Assembly (NCBI GenBank): GCA_020427965.1 | Contig: JAGQNT010000188.1 | Coordinates: 708-64,707, forward strand | Direction of reading: 5' to 3' | Source of the DNA: Candidatus Saccharimonadota bacterium | GTDB lineage: Bacteria > Patescibacteriota > Saccharimonadia > Saccharimonadales > UBA4665 | Length of the DNA: 64,000 bases | Part shown: piece by piece, positions 1 to 52,405 of the stretch | How the letters are laid out: each line of letters opens with the position of its first letter | Position numbering within the stretch: position 1 is the first letter of the stretch | The notes under the pieces: model-generated | What the model was told of the DNA's origin: nothing | What the model saw: the letters and a program-made list of their open reading frames with translations, nothing else | Databases searched by the model: none | Made by a program: the position numbers and the translations under genes

Positions 1-438
1 GGCGCCGCCAGAAACAGTGCCAATTAACGTGCCATGGACTGAATGACGCTTGGTCCAGCCATACAGCACCACATAATCAATGAAGGCCACTAAGCCGATC
101 ATTGTTACGAGCATCGTGGTGCCAAGGATCAATATCGCAAAGCCAGTCACGCCTAGCATAGTTGCGTACCACAGTGCCTGTTGGGCGCTGATTGTTCCAT
201 TGGCCAGAGCGCGTTTTTGGGTACGCGCCATTTTTGCGTCAATGCCACGGTCTATGTAATTGTTGAACACACAGGCCGAAGCAATGACAAGCCCGATGCC
301 AATCACGAGATACGCCAGTAGTAGCCAGTCAACATGCCACTGCGTCGCAAACAAGTAACCAGCAAAGGCGGTCAGGACGTTGGTGTAGAGGATGCCTGGT
401 TTGACTAACTGATAGTATTGACGCAGTTTAGAGCCCAT
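1..438 (-). CDS. cyoE: Heme O synthase (protoheme IX farnesyltransferase), 3' end cut by window edge
   Basis: Absent from the ORF track because it runs off the window. My minus-strand translation from ATG 438 reads MGSKLRQYYQLVKPGILYTNVLTAFAGYLF...FNNYIDRGIDAKMARTQKRALA, which is UbiA-prenyltransferase-like. It overlaps the cyoD stop by 11 nt and is last in the cyo operon. Confidence 0.8.
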   Translation of the reverse strand, partial: MGSKLRQYYQLVKPGILYTNVLTAFAGYLFATQWHVDWLLLAYLVIGIGLVIASACVFNNYIDRGIDAKMARTQKRALANGTISAQQALWYATMLGVTGFAILILGTTMLVTMIGLVAFIDYVVLYGWTKRHSVHGTLIGTVSGGA

Positions 439-784
439 CTTGGCTGTGCATATATTCGTTCATTTGCTCGGGAGAAGCCATCATGTTGTAGTTGAGGTTA
501 TTCATAATCCATAGACTGCCAACTACGACAATCACCACAACCAGCAACATAAACCAGAATGTCGCTAGCTTTAGTCGCGGCTTGGGCTCCTGGCCGAGGT
601 GTAGGAAGAAAAACATCTGAACGCCAAACTGTGCGAGTGCCAGCGCGGCAACACTTCCAATCAGTAGGCTGTGTGAAAATTTGTCGTGCTGCACCAGATA
701 AAACGAGGTCAGTGTCAGGAGAATCGACAGCACAAAACCAATGATATACGCATTACGACTACGGGTTAGTTCCAGCTTGCTCAT
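428..784 (-). CDS. cyoD: Cytochrome o ubiquinol oxidase subunit IV
   Basis: Small protein with three TM segments after cyoC. I chose the internal start MSKLELTRS at 784 (ATGA overlap with the cyoC stop) rather than the track start at 853. Confidence 0.8.
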   Translation of the reverse strand: MSKLELTRSRNAYIIGFVLSILLTLTSFYLVQHDKFSHSLLIGSVAALALAQFGVQMFFFLHLGQEPKPRLKLATFWFMLLVVVIVVVGSLWIMNNLNYNMMASPEQMNEYMHSQDGL

Positions 785-1371
785 ACGCCGATGACTCCAA
801 ACAGATATACAATTGTGAAAATAAATATCCAGACCACATCTAGGAAGTGCCAAAACATACCAAATAATGTGAGTTGGCGGAGGGTGTTATTGCCAAGCCC
901 GCGTTTCATGACGCGAATTGCCAATGTAGCTAGCCACAGTAAGCCAACGGTAATGTGCGCCCCGTGCGTCCCAACGAGCGTGAAGAACGACGACAAGAAG
1001 GCGCTTTGCCTCCAGCTGTTGCCCTCAAGTGCCAAATGTCGGAATTCGCTCACTTCGAGTGCCAAGAACGCAGCGCCCAGAATGAAGACGAGTCCGTACA
1101 AGAGCAGCGCCCGGCCGGCATCTTTTCGTCGGGCAGATAGGAGAGCCATGCCAGCAAAGAAGCTACTTGTCAGTAGGATCATGGTTTCCAGTAGCACAAA
1201 GTTTAGGTCAAACAGTCCTGCTGCACCTTCCCCACCGTTCGTGTTAGCGTGGAGTACCGCGTAAGTGGCAAACAGACTCGCAAATAGCACACAGTCGGTC
1301 ATCAAGTAAATCCAGAAGCCCAAGTACGTCTTGCTGTCGTGGTCGACTGTGGCGGAAGCTACGTCGCTCAT
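781..1371 (-). CDS. cyoC: Cytochrome o ubiquinol oxidase subunit III
   Basis: 196 aa heme-copper oxidase subunit III-like protein (FWIYLMTDCVLF, WHFLDVVWIFIF). Position is in the cyoABCD order. Confidence 0.9.
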   Translation of the reverse strand: MSDVASATVDHDSKTYLGFWIYLMTDCVLFASLFATYAVLHANTNGGEGAAGLFDLNFVLLETMILLTSSFFAGMALLSARRKDAGRALLLYGLVFILGAAFLALEVSEFRHLALEGNSWRQSAFLSSFFTLVGTHGAHITVGLLWLATLAIRVMKRGLGNNTLRQLTLFGMFWHFLDVVWIFIFTIVYLFGVIGV

Positions 1372-3338
1372 GCCGTACCCCCTTCTAGGTCCAATTTCTT
1401 CAGGCGATCGGCAGAAATTGTCCGTTCGGTATCGTCAAAGGTAGATCGTACAATAACCGAACCAATTACACCGAGTAGCCCAATAACTGTCAGCCACCAA
1501 ATGTGCCAAACGATGGCGAAGCCGGCTACAAATGCAAAGGCACCGATGATCGGCCCAACACCGCTATTTTTGGGCAGATGAATAGCGCTATACGGACCAC
1601 TGGCGACAGCCTGTTTGTGTTGCTTTGCCTCCCAGAAGGCATCACGTGAGGATACTGCGGGTAATCGGGCAAAATTGTATTCGGGTGAAGGCGAGCTGGT
1701 TGCCCATTCGAGGGTGCGAGCGTTCCACGGATCACCGTCCACACGATTTTCATCGCGCTTCCAAATGCTGTATGCCAGTTGTAACAGCTGGAAACCGACA
1801 CCCGCTAACACAAACGCCACTCCAACTGCTGCCACGATAAACAGCCATTGCCAGCCGAGGCTTGCGTCGTAGTGATCAAGTCGTCTGGTGGCGCCCATGA
1901 GCCCAAGAATGTATAGCGGCGTGAACGCTAACGTAAAACCAATGATCCAGTTGTAGAACGCATAGCGCCCAAGTCGTTCGTTGAGTTTGAATCCAAAAAC
2001 CTTTGGAAACCAATAACTGACGCCCGCAAACATACCAAACAGCACGCCACCAATAATCATAGTGTGAAAATGCGCTACCAGAAATAAGCTGTTGTGTAGC
2101 TGGAAGTCGGCTGGCGGTACGGCCATGACAACACCGGCTACACCACCAATCGTAAAGGTGACAATAAAGCCCATAAACCACAGCATGGGCGTGGCGAACA
2201 GAATACGGCCGCGATACATCGTGAACAGCCAGTTGAATACCTTGACGCCTGTCGGAACTGCAATAATCATGGTCATGATGCCAAAGAACGCATTAACGTC
2301 AGCACCGGCGCCCATGGTGAAGAAGTGGTGCAACCAGACGATGAATGATAGGAAGGTAATGGCCCCAATTGCCCAGACCATTGACGTGTAGCCGAATAAG
2401 CGTTTGCGCGAGAAGGTAGCGACCACTTCGCTGAAGACACCGAAGGCCGGCAGCACGAGGATGTAGACCTCTGGGTGCCCCCAAGCCCAGATGAGATTAA
2501 CGTACATCATGGCATTGCCGCCACCATCGCTTGTAAAGAAATGCATGCCGAGCGTGCGGTCCAAGGCAAGCAGCGCCAACGTCGCGGTCAAGATCGGGAA
2601 TGCGAAGATGACCAGCATCATACTGCCCATGACACTCCAGGCAAAAATGGGCATTTGCATGAGCTTCATACCAGGTGCCCGCATTTTGAAAATTGTTACC
2701 AGGAAGTTAATACCCGACATCAGGCTGCCGACGCCGGCAATTTGCAGTGCCCAGATCCAATAATCAATACCAACGCCCGGACTGTAGGCTAGCTCGGACA
2801 GCGGTGGGTAGGCTAACCAGCCGGCGGCCGAAAATTCACCAATGATTAGCGAGACATTTACCAGCATCATACCAGCCGCAAATAACCAAAAACTGACTGA
2901 GTTCAAAAACGGAAAGGCTACATCACGAGAGCCGAGCATCTGTGGCAAAACGAGATTGATCATGGCAAAGATAAAGCCCATGGCCACGAAAAAGATCATG
3001 ATGGTGCCATGAGCCGAGAAAATCTGCTGGAAGTGGTACGAATCCATGATGCCATCTGACCCAGATGCTGTTGCCTGCTGAGCGCGCAGGAGCAGCACGT
3101 CGGCCAGTCCACGCAGTAGCATCAGTCCGGCGACAACCAGATACATGATGCCGATCTTTTTGTGGTCCAAAGACGTTAGCCATTCGCGCCACAACCAACC
3201 GACTTTCTTGAAGTACAGGAGAGCTGCGGCAGCACCAAGGCCAACGACAAGCATTGAGATGACGCCACCAAGTGTAATTGCGTCACGCGGTATCGCGTCT
3301 AGGCTGAGTTTGCCAAGTAGGCTCGCAAAAAACATCAT
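1368..3338 (-). CDS. cyoB: Cytochrome o ubiquinol oxidase subunit I
   Basis: 656 aa with heme-copper oxidase subunit I signatures (WAWGHPEVYILVLPAFG, HFHTMIIGG, WLHHFFTMG). Confidence 0.95.
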   Translation of the reverse strand: MMFFASLLGKLSLDAIPRDAITLGGVISMLVVGLGAAAALLYFKKVGWLWREWLTSLDHKKIGIMYLVVAGLMLLRGLADVLLLRAQQATASGSDGIMDSYHFQQIFSAHGTIMIFFVAMGFIFAMINLVLPQMLGSRDVAFPFLNSVSFWLFAAGMMLVNVSLIIGEFSAAGWLAYPPLSELAYSPGVGIDYWIWALQIAGVGSLMSGINFLVTIFKMRAPGMKLMQMPIFAWSVMGSMMLVIFAFPILTATLALLALDRTLGMHFFTSDGGGNAMMYVNLIWAWGHPEVYILVLPAFGVFSEVVATFSRKRLFGYTSMVWAIGAITFLSFIVWLHHFFTMGAGADVNAFFGIMTMIIAVPTGVKVFNWLFTMYRGRILFATPMLWFMGFIVTFTIGGVAGVVMAVPPADFQLHNSLFLVAHFHTMIIGGVLFGMFAGVSYWFPKVFGFKLNERLGRYAFYNWIIGFTLAFTPLYILGLMGATRRLDHYDASLGWQWLFIVAAVGVAFVLAGVGFQLLQLAYSIWKRDENRVDGDPWNARTLEWATSSPSPEYNFARLPAVSSRDAFWEAKQHKQAVASGPYSAIHLPKNSGVGPIIGAFAFVAGFAIVWHIWWLTVIGLLGVIGSVIVRSTFDDTERTISADRLKKLDLEGGTA

Positions 3339-4237
3339 GTGCCCAAACTCCCGTCAGGCTGCTCCATGGCGGCCATGCTATGTGAATGCCCCATAAACTT
3401 AGAGTGTATCAGACTGAATAAATCGGCCTGGGTCGCACCGTAGAGCTGCGTATCTGTATTGCGGCTGGGCTTTGCGAGCTGTTCGTAGGAGTCAAACGTA
3501 AGGAATCGGGGTGACTGCTGCACGGCCGCCAGCCAGTCGTAAAACGCTGTAGAGCTGTCGGCCCGTACATCGAAATGCATGTCAGAAAAACCCTTGCCGC
3601 TAATATTGGCAGAGGTACCGTAATAATCACCTACGTTGTCGGCCTGGAGATGCAGCTTGGTAACCATCCCAGCCATGGCATACACCTGGCCACCAAGTTG
3701 CGGTATCCAAAACGAATTCATGGGCGCATCAGCAGTAATTTCGAAATTTACTGGTTGCCCCACGGGTATTTGCAAGTGATTGACACTAGCAACGCCTAGA
3801 TCAGGGTAGATAAATAGCCATCGCCATTGCAGTGCGATTACCTGCACCCGGAGTGGTGTAGCGGTGCTAGCCAGTGGACGGTACGGGTCTAGATCGTGGC
3901 TACTGTTCCAGGTAACGACTGATAGGATCAGAATAAGTATGGTTGGCACCAGCCACCAAATCGTTTCAATGCCGCGATGATGATCCCAGTTGGGTTGGTA
4001 CGTAGCATGATTACCCTCACGGTACTTGTAGGCAAACAAAAATAGCATTACGAACACCGGTATGACGACAATCAATGAAAGCCCAAAGGCGAAATAGATG
4101 AGATTTCGTTCCTTCAGCCCGATGATGCCTTGCGGTTCCAAGACCGGAACATTGGCGTAGTGGATTACTACTGCGAAGATGCCAACGACGACTGCTATCC
4201 CAAGCAGCACCAGCAGCCAGGCTCGCTTAGTCGTCAT
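3335..4237 (-). CDS. cyoA: Cytochrome o ubiquinol oxidase subunit II
   Basis: Two N-terminal TM helices plus a cupredoxin-like domain (ALQWRWLFIYP, SFWIPQLGGQ). Start set at MTTKRAWLL (4237), not the track start at 4303. Confidence 0.9.
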   Translation of the reverse strand: MTTKRAWLLVLLGIAVVVGIFAVVIHYANVPVLEPQGIIGLKERNLIYFAFGLSLIVVIPVFVMLFLFAYKYREGNHATYQPNWDHHRGIETIWWLVPTILILILSVVTWNSSHDLDPYRPLASTATPLRVQVIALQWRWLFIYPDLGVASVNHLQIPVGQPVNFEITADAPMNSFWIPQLGGQVYAMAGMVTKLHLQADNVGDYYGTSANISGKGFSDMHFDVRADSSTAFYDWLAAVQQSPRFLTFDSYEQLAKPSRNTDTQLYGATQADLFSLIHSKFMGHSHSMAAMEQPDGSLGT

Positions 4238-4309
4238 GACCTGCCTGATGGTAGCGTTTGTCTTGCTTAAACACCTGGTCCATATCTGGAGCCAGTATAG
4301 CACTTATGG

Positions 4310-13009: not shown

Positions 13010-13516
13010 CTATTCGAATCGAAAAATGTCAGTATTTTTGCGCACTTCACTAGATGAAAATACACCGCCATTCATTGAAAGGTAAACGCCTGGTTCTAGG
13101 CTGTCGAGTAGGCCAATTGCATAGCCAAGATTGAATCCAGCATCTGAGGATGCAAAACCGGTAATCGGTATCATTGCTCCGGTTATAATGATTTTTTTAT
13201 CCTTTGGCAATTGTTTTTCAATAAATTCTGCGGTGTTCCGCATGGTAAAGGTGCCATGTGTGATGACAATATTCTTATGTGGCGAGGATGCAATAGCCGC
13301 TAGTAGCTTTTGCCTATCCTCCTCAGTGATGTCACGGCTGTCCTTGGAGAATGCTTGCTCGATACTGTAGGTGAAGTGAGGTTGGATTAGTTTGCTAAGG
13401 TAACTATCGATAGATGAATCTAGCTTTAGGAGGATATTATTCATGTCCTCGTATGCCGGATCGTGAAACTCAATAGTTCCTCCGGTTTTTATGATGTGTA
13501 CATGAGATCTCGTCAT
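13010..13516 (-). CDS. L-asparaginase-family (N-terminal domain type) protein
   Basis: HIIKTGGTIEF contains the asparaginase TGGTI motif; also ITHGTFTM. Start set at MTRSHVH (13516), because the longer track ORF runs into the structured RNA region. Confidence 0.7.
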   Translation of the reverse strand: MTRSHVHIIKTGGTIEFHDPAYEDMNNILLKLDSSIDSYLSKLIQPHFTYSIEQAFSKDSRDITEEDRQKLLAAIASSPHKNIVITHGTFTMRNTAEFIEKQLPKDKKIIITGAMIPITGFASSDAGFNLGYAIGLLDSLEPGVYLSMNGGVFSSSEVRKNTDIFRFE

Positions 13517-13548
13517 GAGAACTATTGTAGCACTGTCATCGTTATTGC

Positions 13549-13652
13549 GGAGGGACTCAACCTTGCCTTCGGCAACCCGGCTCCCATGGTCGCCGGGCTT
13601 CGGGCGGCTGAGTGCCACTGGCACTCGCGTTCGAATCCTAGCTGCAGAGCCA
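13549..13652 (+). ncRNA. GC-rich structured RNA candidate with a tRNA-like 3' end
   Basis: Hairpins TTGCC-TTC-GGCAA, CCCGGC...GCCGGG and GAGTGCC-ACT-GGCACTC, then GTTCGAATCC...GCCA, followed directly by a terminator. No complete cloverleaf could be drawn. Confidence 0.3.
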
Positions 13653-31606: not shown

Positions 31607-32077
31607 ATGGGAAGTACCAGCAGAGGCACAGTCGAGAACCTATCAATCGCAGAACGTCGAATTATTGTTACTGCTGCTGGGCTTGTTAGTCGTTACGTCG
31701 ATACTCGTGACCGAGAAGTACGCCTACCGCTTATAGCAATGACAAGACGTTGCCTGGAGGTTGTTACCGGAACGAGACGTCCAGCACCACATAGCGGCCT
31801 TCCGATCAGTCCAGTCACTCACGAAGTGGTCTTGGAGGCGGATCAAGCGGGTAAGTTGGATGTTGCCGCACAACAGATGTTGGCACGTATGGCAACCATG
31901 GGAGACCCGGTGGCCGCTTGTGAGCGACTCGGTCAGGTTGAGACAACGGTCTTTGACGTGCCTTTCCTGAGTGATGCTGGCCTAGAGCTGAACCGTGTTA
32001 CTATCCCCGATGATGCGTTGGCGCGCTATACATTACACAATATCGATACTGGTCTGGATACACCATCCAAACTATAG
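31607..32077 (+). CDS. Hypothetical 156-aa protein
   Basis: Only plus-strand ORF in this block. No family recognised. Confidence 0.5.
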   Translation: MGSTSRGTVENLSIAERRIIVTAAGLVSRYVDTRDREVRLPLIAMTRRCLEVVTGTRRPAPHSGLPISPVTHEVVLEADQAGKLDVAAQQMLARMATMGDPVAACERLGQVETTVFDVPFLSDAGLELNRVTIPDDALARYTLHNIDTGLDTPSKL

Positions 32078-34411
32078 ATTTTGCAGCTTAAACTGCGTGT
32101 AGCGTTCAGCGGCGAGGCGTGTAAGTGCCTCGTCTTCGCCTTGATTCACGAATTTCATGGCCTCACCAAGCAACGGATGCACTTGGCTGAGTTTTTCATG
32201 CATCTGTAGTACCAACTTACGATAGCCAGGGTGACCTTGTGGGCTAGTCCTGAGTTCGTGTAGGTGGAACGCTTCGCGGGCATTGTACGTGACCTTCCAG
32301 CGCATGCGGTGACCCATCAGTGTGGCGTATTGAGCATCGACTTCGTGACCGGCGCGTTGCAGGACGCTGTATAGCTTTAGGCTTAAATCAAAGCACGCTT
32401 CAAACTGATCTGTTAAGCCGGCATCTTCGACTAACTTCGGTATTTCATAGCCGTAGCGTGGTGTTAGTTGCTGCCAATTTAGGTCATCAACCATGCGGTG
32501 ACGTTGCAGGTCACGGAAAATACCATAGTCACAGACCAGATCCCAACTGTAGTGAGCTTTTTCCAGAGCCCTACCCGGTTTGTGGCGACGGTTGAGGCGT
32601 TCGCCCATATAGGCATCAAAAACACTCAAGCGTTTTTCATAGTGCCAGCCAGCAACTTCGTCGCGGATCTTCCGTAGTGGCTGGTCGACATGTTCGTACA
32701 GCATGTCGGCGACAATATCCAACTCGTTACGTGGCCAGACATCAGTGAGTGTAACGGGCTCACCAGCCTCGCTGTAACCTGCGGGCAGATACTCATCGGC
32801 TAGCTCTCTGACAGCTTCCTCTGTGTTGGCACGGTATGCAATGGTGGCACCGCCACGTTCTGGTTTGTCGGCACGTTCTAGGAATGTCGGCGTCACTTTC
32901 CGTCCGGCGTCTAGTAGCTGCTGGCCCACGGTCCGGGCCTCTTCTAGGCGATCACTTTGCAGGTGCATAATCAGGCTTTCCAGCGCCTGTCCGGAGGCAA
33001 AAATACCAACCGTAGAAGTTGTAGCAACCGGCAATACCGCTCGGGCCGCATCGCAAGCCTGGGCACGGACAGCACCCTTCCACGCGACATCTCGTTCTTC
33101 TTTTGGCGTGTCAGAGTTGCCGGCAACGTAATCGGTTAATTCGTGTACCATCTGAGAATAGAGTGCGAATATCTCGTCCATGATATCGCAGTAGATTTGT
33201 TTGATGCGCTCGTCAAAATGCTCCGGCACGTGGTAGCGATACTTACCGTTCTGATCTTTTTCATCGAAGTAAATGTAGCGCGTTGACTGTTCTAGATATG
33301 CGGCCAGCCTGCCCCACTCAAGTTTTTTGGTTAACAGATTCGAGGCGTTCTCCACAACCAGGTGGATACCTGTCAACTGTTGTACCGAGTCGTCTCCGTA
33401 GGCAGTAATGACGCGTTGCAGCAGTTTTTCGTCCTTGCCCATGGCGTGCGCAAATTCATCTAGAATCGTTATACGCATATCGTCAGCGCGGCGACTGAGG
33501 CGTGCCATGGCGGCCGCAATAGTAACGGGGCTGAGCTTGTCGCCAAAGGCGTAAACATTGCCCTCAGTGTCAGTGACGGCATCAGACAAGTAATTTCGCC
33601 CAGCATCCGTCATGACCGTGTGGCGGCCTTGCTTTTCAACATAGGGATTATCAGCCGTTTGATTCGGTGGTTGAGCAGTTTTTTCGCTGGCAATTGCTGA
33701 TCGATTGGTTTTTTCTGGCAGCAACGGTGCTATCTTTTCCCACAGGATTTTATGCACCTCGTCGATACTCAGTAACTTGTCACCGCGAACACAGTCAATA
33801 CGAGTGAAATCCTTCGGGAATAGCTGACACATGTCGTCGTATACCTCTACAGCTCGGCTGAGGTGGTTTAGGTCGGCTTCATGAAGGTCGCGTTTTTTAG
33901 TGGTGTAGCTACGAGCTTCTTTCTGGTCGACCAGCTGTTGTGCGGTTTCGGCCGGAACTCGAAGTACGAAATTAGCATCTGGACGCGGAATGTGAAGCAT
34001 CTGAAATTCTAAGTTATCCAGCCAAATAAAATAGCCGCGTCGTTCCTCGGCATTAGCAAATTTCGTGCCTTGATGACCCATATTAGAGCCAGTAAAGCGA
34101 TTTGTGATGACTACCTTGCCAGCCTCTAAGGCTTTTCTGATCTGGAATGAGGCTTCGTAACGGTCCAGGGCGTAGAATAGCGAGCCAGTGTACGGGCCAA
34201 CCTCGTCTGACGTCCCATAGCCACCGTTTAGGTATTTGCGCACGAAATAACTAGAGTCCTGTTCGTATTGTGGAAAATCAAAGGTTGCTACATCATACCC
34301 TTCGCTCTCAAGCCTCTCAACCAATCGCTTAAACTGCGTCCCCTTACCAGACCCGTCGGTACCCTCTATGGCAATAAAAATGCCGTTTGAGCTCGGTTTT
34401 GCGGGGCTCAT
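32072..34411 (-). CDS. Fusion protein: thymidylate kinase (N-terminal) plus FAD-dependent thymidylate synthase ThyX-like region (C-terminal, about 520 aa)
   Basis: Tmk P-loop IAIEGTDGSGKGTQ and FDFPQY. The C-terminal region has the ThyX-type motif FRDLQRHRM and HLHELRTSPQ. Confidence 0.8.
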   Translation of the reverse strand: MSPAKPSSNGIFIAIEGTDGSGKGTQFKRLVERLESEGYDVATFDFPQYEQDSSYFVRKYLNGGYGTSDEVGPYTGSLFYALDRYEASFQIRKALEAGKVVITNRFTGSNMGHQGTKFANAEERRGYFIWLDNLEFQMLHIPRPDANFVLRVPAETAQQLVDQKEARSYTTKKRDLHEADLNHLSRAVEVYDDMCQLFPKDFTRIDCVRGDKLLSIDEVHKILWEKIAPLLPEKTNRSAIASEKTAQPPNQTADNPYVEKQGRHTVMTDAGRNYLSDAVTDTEGNVYAFGDKLSPVTIAAAMARLSRRADDMRITILDEFAHAMGKDEKLLQRVITAYGDDSVQQLTGIHLVVENASNLLTKKLEWGRLAAYLEQSTRYIYFDEKDQNGKYRYHVPEHFDERIKQIYCDIMDEIFALYSQMVHELTDYVAGNSDTPKEERDVAWKGAVRAQACDAARAVLPVATTSTVGIFASGQALESLIMHLQSDRLEEARTVGQQLLDAGRKVTPTFLERADKPERGGATIAYRANTEEAVRELADEYLPAGYSEAGEPVTLTDVWPRNELDIVADMLYEHVDQPLRKIRDEVAGWHYEKRLSVFDAYMGERLNRRHKPGRALEKAHYSWDLVCDYGIFRDLQRHRMVDDLNWQQLTPRYGYEIPKLVEDAGLTDQFEACFDLSLKLYSVLQRAGHEVDAQYATLMGHRMRWKVTYNAREAFHLHELRTSPQGHPGYRKLVLQMHEKLSQVHPLLGEAMKFVNQGEDEALTRLAAERYTQFKLQNL

Positions 34412-44910: not shown

Positions 44911-45008
44911 ATTCTATCCATGTATAGCAGATTTCTCTCTGATTGAAAAGGGGAAACAGATGACAGATGTATCATTTTCGATTATCATAAAGCAGTCTTT
45001 GCCTTCGT

Positions 45009-45157
45009 AGGGGAGTAGCTCAGTTGGTAGAGCACCGGTCTCCAAAACCGGGTGTCGCAGGTGAGAACTGCCTGTGGCAGTTCGCAAGGGAGACCACTCT
45101 TGCAAACTGGTTTGCAAAGATGTGGCGACGGGGTCGCGGAACGTGACCAAGTCCTGC
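45009..45157 (+). pseudogene. tRNA-Trp(CCA)-like gene with an 85-nt insertion in the T-loop; no matching 3' acceptor strand
   Basis: The first 54 nt differ from the tRNA-Trp at 45191 at one position. The insert (45063-45147) follows the first T of the T-loop (T54). CAAGT-CCTGC then closes the T-stem, and the next 7 nt (CAGATTT) cannot pair with AGGGGAG. Confidence 0.55.
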
Positions 45158-45190
45158 CAGATTTGAACCTTTTCAGTAAAATTCTGTAGT

Positions 45191-45266
45191 AGGGGAGTAG
45201 ATCAGTTGGTAGAGCACCGGTCTCCAAAACCGGGTGTCGCAGGTTCAAGTCCTGTCTCCCCTGCCA
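45191..45266 (+). tRNA. tRNA-Trp (anticodon CCA), CCA encoded
   Basis: Hand-folded: AGGGGAG/CTCCCCT acceptor, anticodon loop CTCCAAA, T-arm GCAGG-TTCAAGT-CCTGT. Confidence 0.95.
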
Positions 45267-51627: not shown

Positions 51628-51951
51628 TTAAGACGGAATGAGTTCGACGGCATCTTGCAACAGCCGATAGTGTCGATGGACGTGCTCATGAGCACTCAGC
51701 ACTTCGCCGACTATACTTCTTGGTGGCCGTGACGCATCACCTATTACAAGCCAATCAAATTCTATGACCGGTGGCACGGTCTGCATCAGATGATCTATCG
51801 CATCATAAACGTCTTGCGTGCCCAGGGTTTCTTGGCCTCGTTGCTGTAACCCGCGTAGTATTTCGAAGCCCGTAAACCATCCATCACGCTCAGGTGGTAC
51901 GGTGCGGTTCTCGGTCAGGAAATCTTGAACAAGGTGTGTTGTCTCTGTCAT
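51628..51951 (-). CDS. Hypothetical 107-aa protein
   Basis: Start set at MTETTHLVQDF, because the longer track ORF runs through the RNA element upstream. Confidence 0.45.
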   Translation of the reverse strand: MTETTHLVQDFLTENRTVPPERDGWFTGFEILRGLQQRGQETLGTQDVYDAIDHLMQTVPPVIEFDWLVIGDASRPPRSIVGEVLSAHEHVHRHYRLLQDAVELIPS

Positions 51952-51993
51952 GGTGATACTATACAACAGGTTTGATGGAAAGCAATGATTTAT

Positions 51994-52140
51994 GTTGGGG
52001 AGAGGGATTCGACCTGCGTTCCGCAGGCCCGAAACTTCACGATGACAAGCACAGCTTGTCTCGGAAGATTTCCTTGCGAATTGCCACAGGCAATTCTCAC
52101 CCCGAAGGCTTTCCATCGAGTGTGCGAAGCTTTCTCTACC
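51994..52140 (-). ncRNA. tRNA-Tyr-like T-arm fragment carrying an 86-nt insertion, homologous to the one in the tRNA-Trp copy
   Basis: Minus-sense ...AGCCTTCGGGG-T-[86 nt, 52098-52013]-TCGAAT-CCCTC-TCCCC. The flanks match the 3' part of tRNA-Tyr (11 plus 15 nt). The first 27 nt of the insert match the Trp insert apart from a compensatory pair. Confidence 0.4.
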
Positions 52141-52149
52141 AATCTAAAA

Positions 52150-52170
52150 AGCCACCTTACGGTGGCATCT
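52150..52170 (-). terminator. Terminator-like hairpin after tRNA-Tyr
   Basis: Minus-strand GCCACC-GTAA-GGTGGC followed by TTTTT. Confidence 0.55.
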
Positions 52171-52175
52171 TAGAT

Positions 52176-52260
52176 TGGTGCAGGGAGAGGGATTCGAACC
52201 CCCGAAGGCTGAGCCAGATGATTTACAGTCACCCGTGTTTGACCGCTTCACTATCCCTGC
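52176..52260 (-). tRNA. tRNA-Tyr (anticodon GUA), long variable arm, CCA encoded
   Basis: Hand-folded: GCAGGGA/TCCCTGC acceptor, anticodon loop CTGTAAA, variable arm GGC-TCA-GCC, T-arm GGGGG-TTCGAAT-CCCTC. Confidence 0.9.
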
Positions 52261-52328: not shown

Positions 52329-52405
52329 TGGAGCCACCTGTCGGATTCGAACCGACGACCCTCGGTTTACAAAACCGATGCTCTAACCAGCTGAGCTAAG
52401 GTGGC
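52329..52405 (-). tRNA. tRNA-Thr (anticodon UGU), CCA encoded
   Basis: Hand-folded: GCCACCT/AGGTGGC acceptor, anticodon loop TTTGTAA, T-arm GTCGG-TTCGAAT-CCGAC. Confidence 0.9.

Follow-up and report, generated by a model that had tools for sequence, protein, structure and literature searches.

A family of structured elements lodged in partial tRNA gene duplicates of Saccharibacteria and possibly mobile among them

Why should the end of a tRNA operon carry a fragment of its own last gene, broken in the T-loop by a strongly folded insert that recurs elsewhere in the same genome? This question is raised by a 64,000-nt stretch of contig JAGQNT010000188.1 from a Candidatus Saccharimonadota bacterium (hereafter the window; G+C 49%). 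Here, the intact tRNA-Tyr(GTA) gene (52176..52260, minus strand), identified by tRNA searches, is followed by the terminator of its operon and, 77 nt downstream of the gene, by an 86-nt insert that we call element E (52013..52098, minus strand). On the minus strand the locus reads AGCCTTCGGGG (52110-52100), a T (52099), the insert (52098-52013) and TCGAATCCCTCTCCC (52012-51998), base for base as described in an earlier reading of the letters alone, termed the original prediction below. That reading derived the fragment from tRNA-Tyr, and the 11 plus 15 flanking nucleotides are indeed identical to the variable-arm/T-arm part of the neighbouring gene (52260-52176). The tRNA 5′ half is absent before the insert, as had also been seen, and the tRNA-derived part totals 26 nt. 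The 5′ flank F (AGCCTTCGGGG plus T; 52099..52110, minus strand) copies the variable arm and the 5′ strand of the T-stem, has one G fewer than the tRNA-Tyr gene and supplies the sequence ..GGGT before the insert. The 3′ flank DR2 (TCGAATCCCTCTCCC; 51998..52012, minus strand) is a direct repeat, 15 nt in length, of 52198-52184 and spans the T-loop remainder, the 3′ strand of the T-stem and 4 nt from the start of the acceptor 3′ strand; what once lay beyond it of the tRNA-Tyr repeat has decayed. Between terminator and F lies R (TAGAGAAAGCTTCGCACACTCGATGG; 52113..52138, minus strand), a degenerate inverted copy of the tRNA-Tyr 3′ part, which pairs with F into a short hairpin across an AAAG loop. 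This piece is individually weak in the window (score 13 versus 10-11 in controls), and homologous pieces occur in the related loci L049 and L058 (L-numbers denote related loci throughout). Judged by sequence comparison, E is one member of a large, Saccharibacteria-specific family of elements of ~85-110 nt. To the reading that it is a non-autonomous mobile element, acting on single strands and tolerated only in redundant tRNA fragments, we assign a probability of about 0.5.

The common denominator of the family is its fold. The Tyr-locus insert, whose body we refer to as type A, forms three hairpins (-38.5 kcal/mol, z = -4.7), all on the minus strand: P1 with 8 bp and a UGU loop (52096-52078), directly 3′ of it the linker J1/2 (GCAAGG), then the long, bulged P2 (52072-52031) followed by CGGG, and finally P3 with 6-8 bp and a GAA loop (52027-52013). 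In an alignment of 73 distinct type A copies made with MAFFT, 96.1% of the cells are paired on the three-helix structure, 24 of the 33 pairs show changes on both sides, and 488 cells are compensatory. None of 500 shuffles reached any of these measures, and sliding the partners by 1-3 columns lowered pairing to 25-43%, so that the covariation proposed from merely two copies holds at scale. RNAalifold on its own recovered the same three helices, plus two invariant pairs, which include the U before GAGAA. One P3 pair is G.U in 61 of the 73 copies, and the closing pair is G-C in 38 copies and G.U in 32. Roughly 30 of the 86 positions are invariant in all copies across roughly 75 species. These comprise U-GAGAA, the CC.GU.GG apex of P1, UUCGCAAGG and CGGG; the linkers are U-GAGAA, GCAAGG and CGGG, and P1 (GAAYUGCC-UGU-GGCARUUC) and P3 (GGYCGCS-GAA-SGUGRCC) have no sequence in common. 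Box C/D-like motifs show a loose resemblance only. A covariance model built from the alignment, for which the bit scores are decisive and the E-values rough, scores the Tyr copy at 103.8 bits (E-value 7e-23) and the antisense strand at 14 bits. E thus folds on one strand only, the sense strand of the tRNA.

The same model recognizes a sister copy of 85 nt (45063..45147, plus strand; 101.8 bits), which resides in the T-loop of a 5′ partial tRNA-Trp (45009..45062, plus strand; positions 1-54, 1 mismatch to the intact gene). That both loci harbor the same structured insert, as predicted, is also evident from a shared 27-nt start, which matches twice in the window (0 expected, 0 in 100 shuffles) and whose sole differences are the two partners of one pair in hairpin 1, a compensatory change that had been correctly pointed out. 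Downstream of the Trp copy follow a T-arm remainder CAAGTCCTG and its inverted copy CCAGATTTGAACC, designated R′ (together 45148..45190, plus strand), before the intact tRNA-Trp (45191-45266) starts 43 nt past the element. A promoter-like site (44960-44988) precedes the partial gene, which would be transcribed from it according to its sequence, and a second one (45154-45182, TAAAAT) is located directly before the intact gene. The Rfam tRNA model matches 45014-45073 in the partial gene region at 33.7 bits; this illustrates how E-bearing fragments can be mis-annotated. The count of two copies for the window stands for the Tyr and Trp loci and overlooked a third, divergent relative, found by eye after tRNA-Gln(TTG) (13760-13686) and its terminator (13547..13649, minus strand). 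It is composed of an inverted T-arm piece CTCTGCAGCTAGGATTCGAAC (13649-13629), a 68-nt body (13628-13561) and a T-arm remnant TTGAGTCCCTCCGC (13560-13547). The body features a P1-like hairpin (GAGTGCC-AGT-GGCACTC) and a P3-like hairpin (GGGTTGCC-GAA-GGCAAGG), its middle differs from type A, UUCGCAAGG is absent, and the covariance model yields a weak P1 match only (13626-13610, E-value 1.1). As the inverted piece abuts the body directly, the latter is situated at the apex of a T-arm palindrome. A called open reading frame (ORF) for a 204-aa asparaginase-like protein (13010-13624), which starts inside this copy, is probably over-extended.

Beyond the window, searching the pattern GAGAANNNCCTGTGGNNNTTCGCAAGG against one-genome-per-species bacterial and archaeal genomes gave 101 contig stretches, nearly all titled Saccharibacteria, Saccharimonadales or Patescibacteria, and several of these contigs carry 2-3 copies. 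A free-loop pattern matched at least 120 metagenome contigs, and a looser pattern with four free stem positions had no match in viral contigs. The covariance model located 130 copies in 712 kb of related loci, and single loci hold as many as 6. Besides type A, a type B body of ~110 nt with different P2 and P3 was encountered, as were further variants; divergent types are under-counted, given that the census was seeded by exact patterns. The same layouts were obtained under different assemblers and in the complete chromosome OY970318.1 (L054), which shows that E is real and not an assembly artefact. E was also seen on short contigs of metagenome-assembled genomes (MAGs) assigned elsewhere, i.e. 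one Calothrix MAG (L003) and a Limnocylindria MAG (L044 and L052); the Saccharibacteria-like tRNA contexts of these contigs indicate that they are probably mis-binned. Rfam 15 (4227 models, self-cleaving ribozymes included) holds no family for E. At the gathering threshold only tRNA and L10-leader models match the window, at E-values up to 10 nothing but tRNA-derived noise covers 51998-52110, and fifteen related loci gave tRNAs only. Full-text literature searches, sequence strings included, retrieved no description of E, which is probably new to science.

How these copies are arranged was analyzed for 245 of them. Most reside in partial tRNA duplicates that adjoin an intact gene for the same tRNA, with an intact gene adjacent in 165 cases and more than 25 isoacceptors involved. 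In 80 copies, including that at Trp, the element lies upstream of the intact tRNA (layout A), and 83, including the Tyr copy, begin 50-110 nt downstream of an intact tRNA on the same strand (layout B). Two copies conform to both layouts, 32 are at contig ends, and 48 are nested, orphan or in non-tRNA targets. Layout A, found only before the first tRNA of a cluster, runs from tRNA positions 1 to 53/54 through E, ~10 nt of T-arm, its inverted copy R′ and a TATAAT-type box to the intact tRNA; these upstream modules sit behind promoter-like sites like those before tRNA genes. Layout B, found only after the last tRNA, consists of the tRNA, a terminator, R, a short loop, the 5′ strand of the T-stem plus T, E, and tRNA positions 55/56 to 76, often closed by a second terminator. 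It recurs behind the final tRNA in many unrelated clusters (Lys, His, Val, Gln, Glu, Leu, Pro, Arg, Ala, Gly, Ser and Met). The earlier suggestion that E occupies the slot of the tRNA-Gly gene glyT in the corresponding E. coli cluster therefore fails, since the flanks stem from tRNA-Tyr itself and the layout is generic.

In the pristine layout B of L018, a 51-nt repeat with 100% identity extends through the terminator, with 128 nt between the repeats. In at least 13 layout B cases the identity to the tRNA ends exactly at CCA, and the second terminator is recognizably homologous to the first in ~10 of 36 cases, with compensatory changes in the stem. In 13 of the 14 clean layout A cases, the 5′ repeat starts at tRNA +1 (0 to -4 nt). 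In decayed copies, it is the T-arm flanks that survive, and the repeats tend to be either 9-16 nt long or complete as far as CCA. Across 47 copies, R is significant, with a mean alignment score of 19.1 for its own tRNA as opposed to 12.6 for other tRNAs and 10.1 after shuffling. Formation of a minihelix from R and the 3′ repeat, i.e. a mimic of acceptor plus T-stem, was considered and discarded, as R does not keep its acceptor-complementary part (L018, L022). Layout A units also occur in tandem arrays (L038, L072), and orphan modules without intact tRNA were found in L010, L073, L079 and L090. These modules contain terminator, inverted piece, E and tRNA 3′ remnant, with an upstream tRNA remnant of 10-25 nt only; in L010, two of them are 1.5 kb apart, the whole ~300-nt module being duplicated. 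Of the five intact tRNA genes in the window, two (both tRNA-Thr) lack a module. Unrelated-looking structured inserts, with an inverted T-arm piece on one side and a tRNA 3′ remnant on the other, were observed in L062 (oriented minus; ~100-300 nt after tRNA-Gln(CTG)), L026 (after the second terminator) and L041 (minus strand, 488), one of them reading GGAGGGTTCGGCGCAGCG...GCTGCAGCCGAT, then ATCCCTCATCCCCAGCCA. It is suggested that several element families share the module layout.

The name T-loop insert, under which the element was predicted, describes most copies and is too narrow for the rest, which are found in D-loops (positions 15-17 in Glu, Gln and Leu), at position 23 of tRNA-Leu(GAG), in the anticodon loops of tRNA-Pro(GGG) and tRNA-Leu(TAG), inside other E copies and in non-tRNA hairpins. 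What these sites have in common is the sequence on their 5′ side: ..GT precedes E in 241 of the 245 copies, and GGGT or AGGT in 197. The tetranucleotide ahead of GAGAA is GGGT in 137 copies, AGGT in 60, GAGT in 17, GTGT in 10 and ATGT and ACGT in 6 each, and only this 5′ flank is conserved, as the 3′ flank varies between kinds of site. Target motifs of the integron attC or IS91 type (G/TT, GTTC) were considered, and the E junctions do not fit them. Nested copies follow the CGGG(G)T of their host copy (L041, L066, L076, L050, L074, L100, L104, L195, L216). Removal of the inner copy renders the P3 of the host contiguous, which identifies E as a discrete unit that inserts without target duplication. 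A dead tRNA-Leu copy in L057 carries three elements, one in the anticodon loop and two in tandem in the T-loop. Among non-tRNA targets, a small hairpin gene or leader recurs in L052 (7250-7500), L091 (7150-7750), L126 and L199, with the junction GAGGGGG^TGGGCACCGC and the surrounding sequence ..GAACCTCTAGAGGGGGTGGGCACCGCTAGAGGTTC..; downstream, CCCTTCAACCCACC could pair with GGUGGG. At this target, for which Rfam has no family, up to three tandem interrupted units precede the intact copy. The recurrent non-tRNA target gene reads GAGGGGGTGGGCACCGC..., and two other recurrent targets are GAGATTTGGGGTTTGGGGT (L152, L168, L171) and GACGTTTGGTGGGT (L158, L184, L209).

Does the Tyr copy reflect a recent event or an old one? 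The loci L049 and L058 share synteny with the window (TrpRS, RluA, holB, TPR protein and L33 at 43-87% protein identity), and both carry E after tRNA-Tyr together with a homologous piece of R, loop and F. The Tyr module hence predates these species, and the region is conserved in two other species rather than being mere spacer, in agreement with the original prediction. In L058, the functional tRNA-Tyr has a new T-stem and the fragment retains the ancestral one. Between copies at the same tRNA, changes at paired positions are compensatory in 63 cases, one-sided in 7 and disrupting in 31. The nearest relative of the Tyr body of the window is the Tyr body of L049 (85%) and that of the Trp body is the Trp body of L101 (92%). 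For only 11 of 50 bodies, however, is the nearest relative found at the same tRNA in another genome, and bodies with 90-93% identity occur at different tRNAs. Both vertical persistence and movement (or conversion) between sites thus seem to take place, as far as can be judged from these comparisons.

How could such a distribution arise? A mobile element would insert immediately 3′ of ..GGGT or ..RGT in or beside the hairpin loop of a stable-RNA gene, its targets comprising the T-loop (positions 54/55), D-loop and anticodon loop of tRNAs, the P3 region of E itself and a few other small hairpin genes. Insertion into the sole gene for a tRNA would be lethal, and surviving copies are therefore those in redundant partial duplicates that neighbour an intact gene. 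Such a duplicate is of the 5′ kind ahead of the first tRNA in an operon (Trp) or of the 3′ kind past the last tRNA and the terminator (Tyr). The Tyr copy would then represent a module of old, vertical descent that has lost its outer tRNA-derived parts to decay and kept E and the enclosing T-stem. The structure would serve propagation, via recognition by a protein or via catalysis, and the substrate may be displaced single-stranded sense DNA at stable-RNA genes under high transcription, or the RNAs of these genes, which would next be reverse transcribed.

The signature of E resembles, by analogy, that of IS200/IS605-type elements. This family and its miniature derivatives (PATEs) are single-strand ‘peel and paste’ elements, and in the IS608 type both ends share one transposase-binding hairpin. 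Like these, E is inserted strictly 3′ of a short motif with only the 5′ flank conserved, without target-site duplication and terminal inverted repeats, has hairpins at both ends, is strand specific and displays an affinity for single-stranded or hairpin DNA. In contrast to PATEs with their similar left and right subterminal hairpins, P1 and P3 are unrelated in sequence. Moreover, P1 starts 2 nt from the end, E targets stable-RNA genes only, its long, conserved linkers and its conserved G.U pair appear more RNA-like, and no Y1 transposase is linked to E, with none among the 30 window ORFs scanned. REP/REPIN sequences, which come with a RAYT gene, and the Rickettsia palindromic elements are likewise short, high-copy, non-coding and strongly folded repeats that are kept in reduced genomes and may be located within RNA genes or behind terminators. 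E differs from them by three distinct helices with invariant junctions, a 4-nt target and a near-exclusive association with tRNA fragments; instead of forming an imperfect palindrome of 20-40 nt, often in inverted doublets, as REP/REPIN sequences do, it measures 85-110 nt, and the adjacent inverted pieces are tRNA-derived.

Several observations weigh against mobility. Neither an autonomous version that encodes a protein nor a candidate transposase, reverse transcriptase or integrase came to light (30 of ~65 window ORFs were scanned, all housekeeping). Among the long or odd variants inspected, which include L048, L187 and L198, L163 proved to be a truncation beside unrelated genes. No insertion polymorphism was detected between near-identical genomes, as L001 and L002 (99.5% identical to the window) both carry the Tyr copy. 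Nor was a usable empty site obtained, since L026 and L062, though 95.6% identical in tRNA-Gln plus terminator, reach only 66-74% identity elsewhere, and L074 and L100 carry the same copies. Moreover, the old syntenic Tyr copies in three species, whose proteins are 43-87% identical, are intact and show compensatory changes; according to these comparisons, their persistence despite loss-prone flanking direct repeats is at least as compatible with selection for a host function as with selfish survival. Simple insertion plus selection does not account for the inverted T-arm piece (R or R′) that regularly adjoins every module, and E junctions lack a nucleotide, G or T, that the intact tRNA has, for which a few flanking bases that travel with E may be responsible. 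The inverted pieces, this junction deficit and the origin of the part-duplications are accounted for by no model, including the alternatives discussed in the following.

The observations on persistence lead to a tentative alternative, in which E is a structured RNA module of tRNA operons that is enclosed by the T-stem and retained by the host for a function. Such an RNA, which we regard as somewhat unlikely but as the strongest competitor, would be expressed from tRNA promoters or by read-through, could act as a small RNA, as a signal for processing or stability or as a protein-binding decoy exploiting T-arm recognition, and would have spread among tRNA genes by duplication and gene conversion instead of transposition. 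The high number of invariant positions in so many species and the conserved G.U pair are in line with this idea, as are the promoter-like sites before upstream modules, the survival of the T-arm flanks in decayed copies and the retention of modules in ~1 Mb genomes in spite of their direct repeats. It is further supported by the excess of compensatory over disrupting changes, the ancestral T-stem of the L058 fragment and the synteny of the Tyr module in three species, where the flanking spacer has diverged and so has even holB (43% aa identity). On the other hand, nested, tandem and truncated copies, orphan modules and the dead tRNA with multiple inserts in L057 are traits that typify selfish repeats and not a regulated gene. 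Downstream modules, the Tyr copy among them, are placed behind a strong terminator without promoter-like site, and presence is patchy, as illustrated by the tRNA-Thr genes of the window. Conceivably, mobility could also operate on RNA level: E RNA would insert after GGGU in exposed loops of abundant folded RNAs, either ribozyme-like or aided by an RNA ligase or reverse transcriptase, and the recombination of cDNA into the genome would generate duplications bounded by transcript or mature tRNA ends. This scenario, which we consider improbable, would explain why the targets are almost only abundant stable RNAs and single-stranded loops (T-, D- and anticodon loops, E itself and small hairpin genes), why 5′ duplicates start at tRNA +1 and why 3′ duplicates end at CCA or pass through the terminator, and it agrees with the conserved G.U pair and the folding of the sense strand alone. 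Yet, the scanned ORFs provided no link to a reverse transcriptase or ligase, 85 nt is far below the size of any known self-splicing RNA, no ribozyme family matches even at an E-value of 10, gene conversion with the conserved tRNA could explain the repeat boundaries as well, and nested inserts need no duplication.

Two further explanations invoke established types of tRNA interruption and have much lower probability. The loci could be attL/attR scars of integrase-driven elements that crossed over in the tRNA T-loop, with E as part of an element arm. According to one study (PMC9897764; Williams 2002 and Reiter 1989 cited there), partial tRNA genes (attR fragments) mark the ends of integrated elements, whose classic signature is a direct repeat of the tRNA 3′ part downstream of the intact gene (PMC9897764), the gene being restored by element-side sequence. 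As in such att fragments, an intact, functional tRNA in E loci is adjoined by a direct repeat of its part that surrounds inserted DNA (15 nt at Tyr, 51 nt in L018) and breaks in a tRNA loop. Crossover by tyrosine integrases reportedly takes place in the tRNA T-loop or anticodon loop. Nevertheless, this reading is very improbable and largely refuted by the 128 nt between the repeats in L018, the lack of a recombinase and the RNA-like fold. The ‘island’ generally comprises ~130-180 nt instead of kilobases and no integrase (~170 nt at the Tyr locus of the window, where no ORF fits a tyrosine or serine recombinase). In addition, the inverted T-arm piece has no counterpart in att fragments, the repeat is broken by an 85-nt unit conserved across all tRNA species, and covariation with G.U pairs is unexpected for double-stranded protein-binding arms. 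E furthermore occurs in D-loops, within itself and in non-tRNA sites without repeat, and 5′ duplicates are as common as 3′ ones. Alternatively, E might be an intron or split-gene linker that is removed from the transcript of a functional tRNA. Group I introns are known from anticodon loops of bacterial tRNAs, and archaeal and red-algal tRNA introns also from non-canonical positions including the T-arm (10.1101/2020.01.27.920355; PMC9602550). E shares with them the structured nature, the location at defined positions of a tRNA loop and the sense orientation, it is enclosed by the T-stem, and many 3′ fragments keep the acceptor strand and CCA. All the same, this explanation is hardly credible. 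Every checkable interrupted copy lacks a tRNA 5′ or 3′ part, and intact genes for the same tRNA, which include tRNA-Tyr and tRNA-Trp here, stand beside the incomplete and redundant copies; there is neither evidence for splicing nor a need of it. The junctions fall 1 nt short of a T-loop, and 86 nt in three simple hairpins without Rfam intron match differ from the group I catalytic core (P3-P9, ~200 nt or more). When 55-259 nt were excised in silico from T-loop copies, ARAGORN found no tRNA across the junction, only the neighbouring intact genes; for the window copies the intron reading is refuted, the Tyr fragment possessing only 26 nt of tRNA.

As to the surroundings of the Tyr copy, the Thr-Tyr operon comprises tRNA-Thr(TGT) (52329-52405), with a promoter upstream at 52448-52420, and tRNA-Tyr, and ends with the intrinsic terminator whose hairpin had been noticed directly upstream of the fragment (52139..52178, minus strand; core 52166-52151, GCCACC-GTAA-GGTGGC, then a T-run). 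In an extended form of this hairpin, CCAATCTAA pairs with TTAGATTGG around the core. Post-tRNA terminators here (52139-52178) and in related loci (e.g. L013, L018, L037, L056) are long hairpins, in whose outer stem the CCA end and an A-rich tract are paired with the T-run plus TGG; this outer stem is predicted to sequester the tRNA 3′ end. Downstream of E, a 107-aa ORF (51628-51951, minus strand) starts at 51951, as had been noted. It has no Pfam domain and no homologue beyond its own species among 5.8 billion clustered proteins, and it is unlinked to E in the syntenic loci L049 and L058. An extended version of 162 aa that runs through E (51628-52116, minus strand) is an ORF-calling artefact. 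Elsewhere in the window, a four-gene haem-copper oxidase operon with COX4_pro, COX3, COX1 and COX2 plus COX_ARM domains (428-4303, minus strand) was observed in this Saccharibacteria genome, together with an apparent Tmk-ThyX fusion encoded by a 779-aa ORF with a thymidylate kinase domain and two ThyX (Thy1) stretches (32072-34411, minus strand).

Saccharibacteria are ultra-small epibiotic bacteria with ~1 Mb genomes and few known mobile elements or non-coding RNAs. In these genomes, E stands out as a conserved, high-copy structured element with a precise target of 4 nt plus loop in the most conserved genes of the cell, surrounded by a stereotyped architecture that leaves every targeted tRNA gene intact. 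On the practical side, E could act as a lineage marker, and E-bearing fragments, which may be mis-called as tRNA genes or pseudogenes, mark the ends of tRNA operons in MAGs. If E is a host RNA, it would establish a new family of tRNA-linked functional RNAs. Should it move on RNA level, it would represent a new class of such elements in bacteria of the candidate phyla radiation (CPR), would undercut all other self-inserting RNAs in size by a wide margin and would exemplify ongoing intron gain by a reverse-splicing type of reaction in bacteria. If, in turn, E is mobile as favored here, it would constitute a new single-strand element that uses tRNA loops as safe harbours, and with it a new site-specific insertion chemistry.

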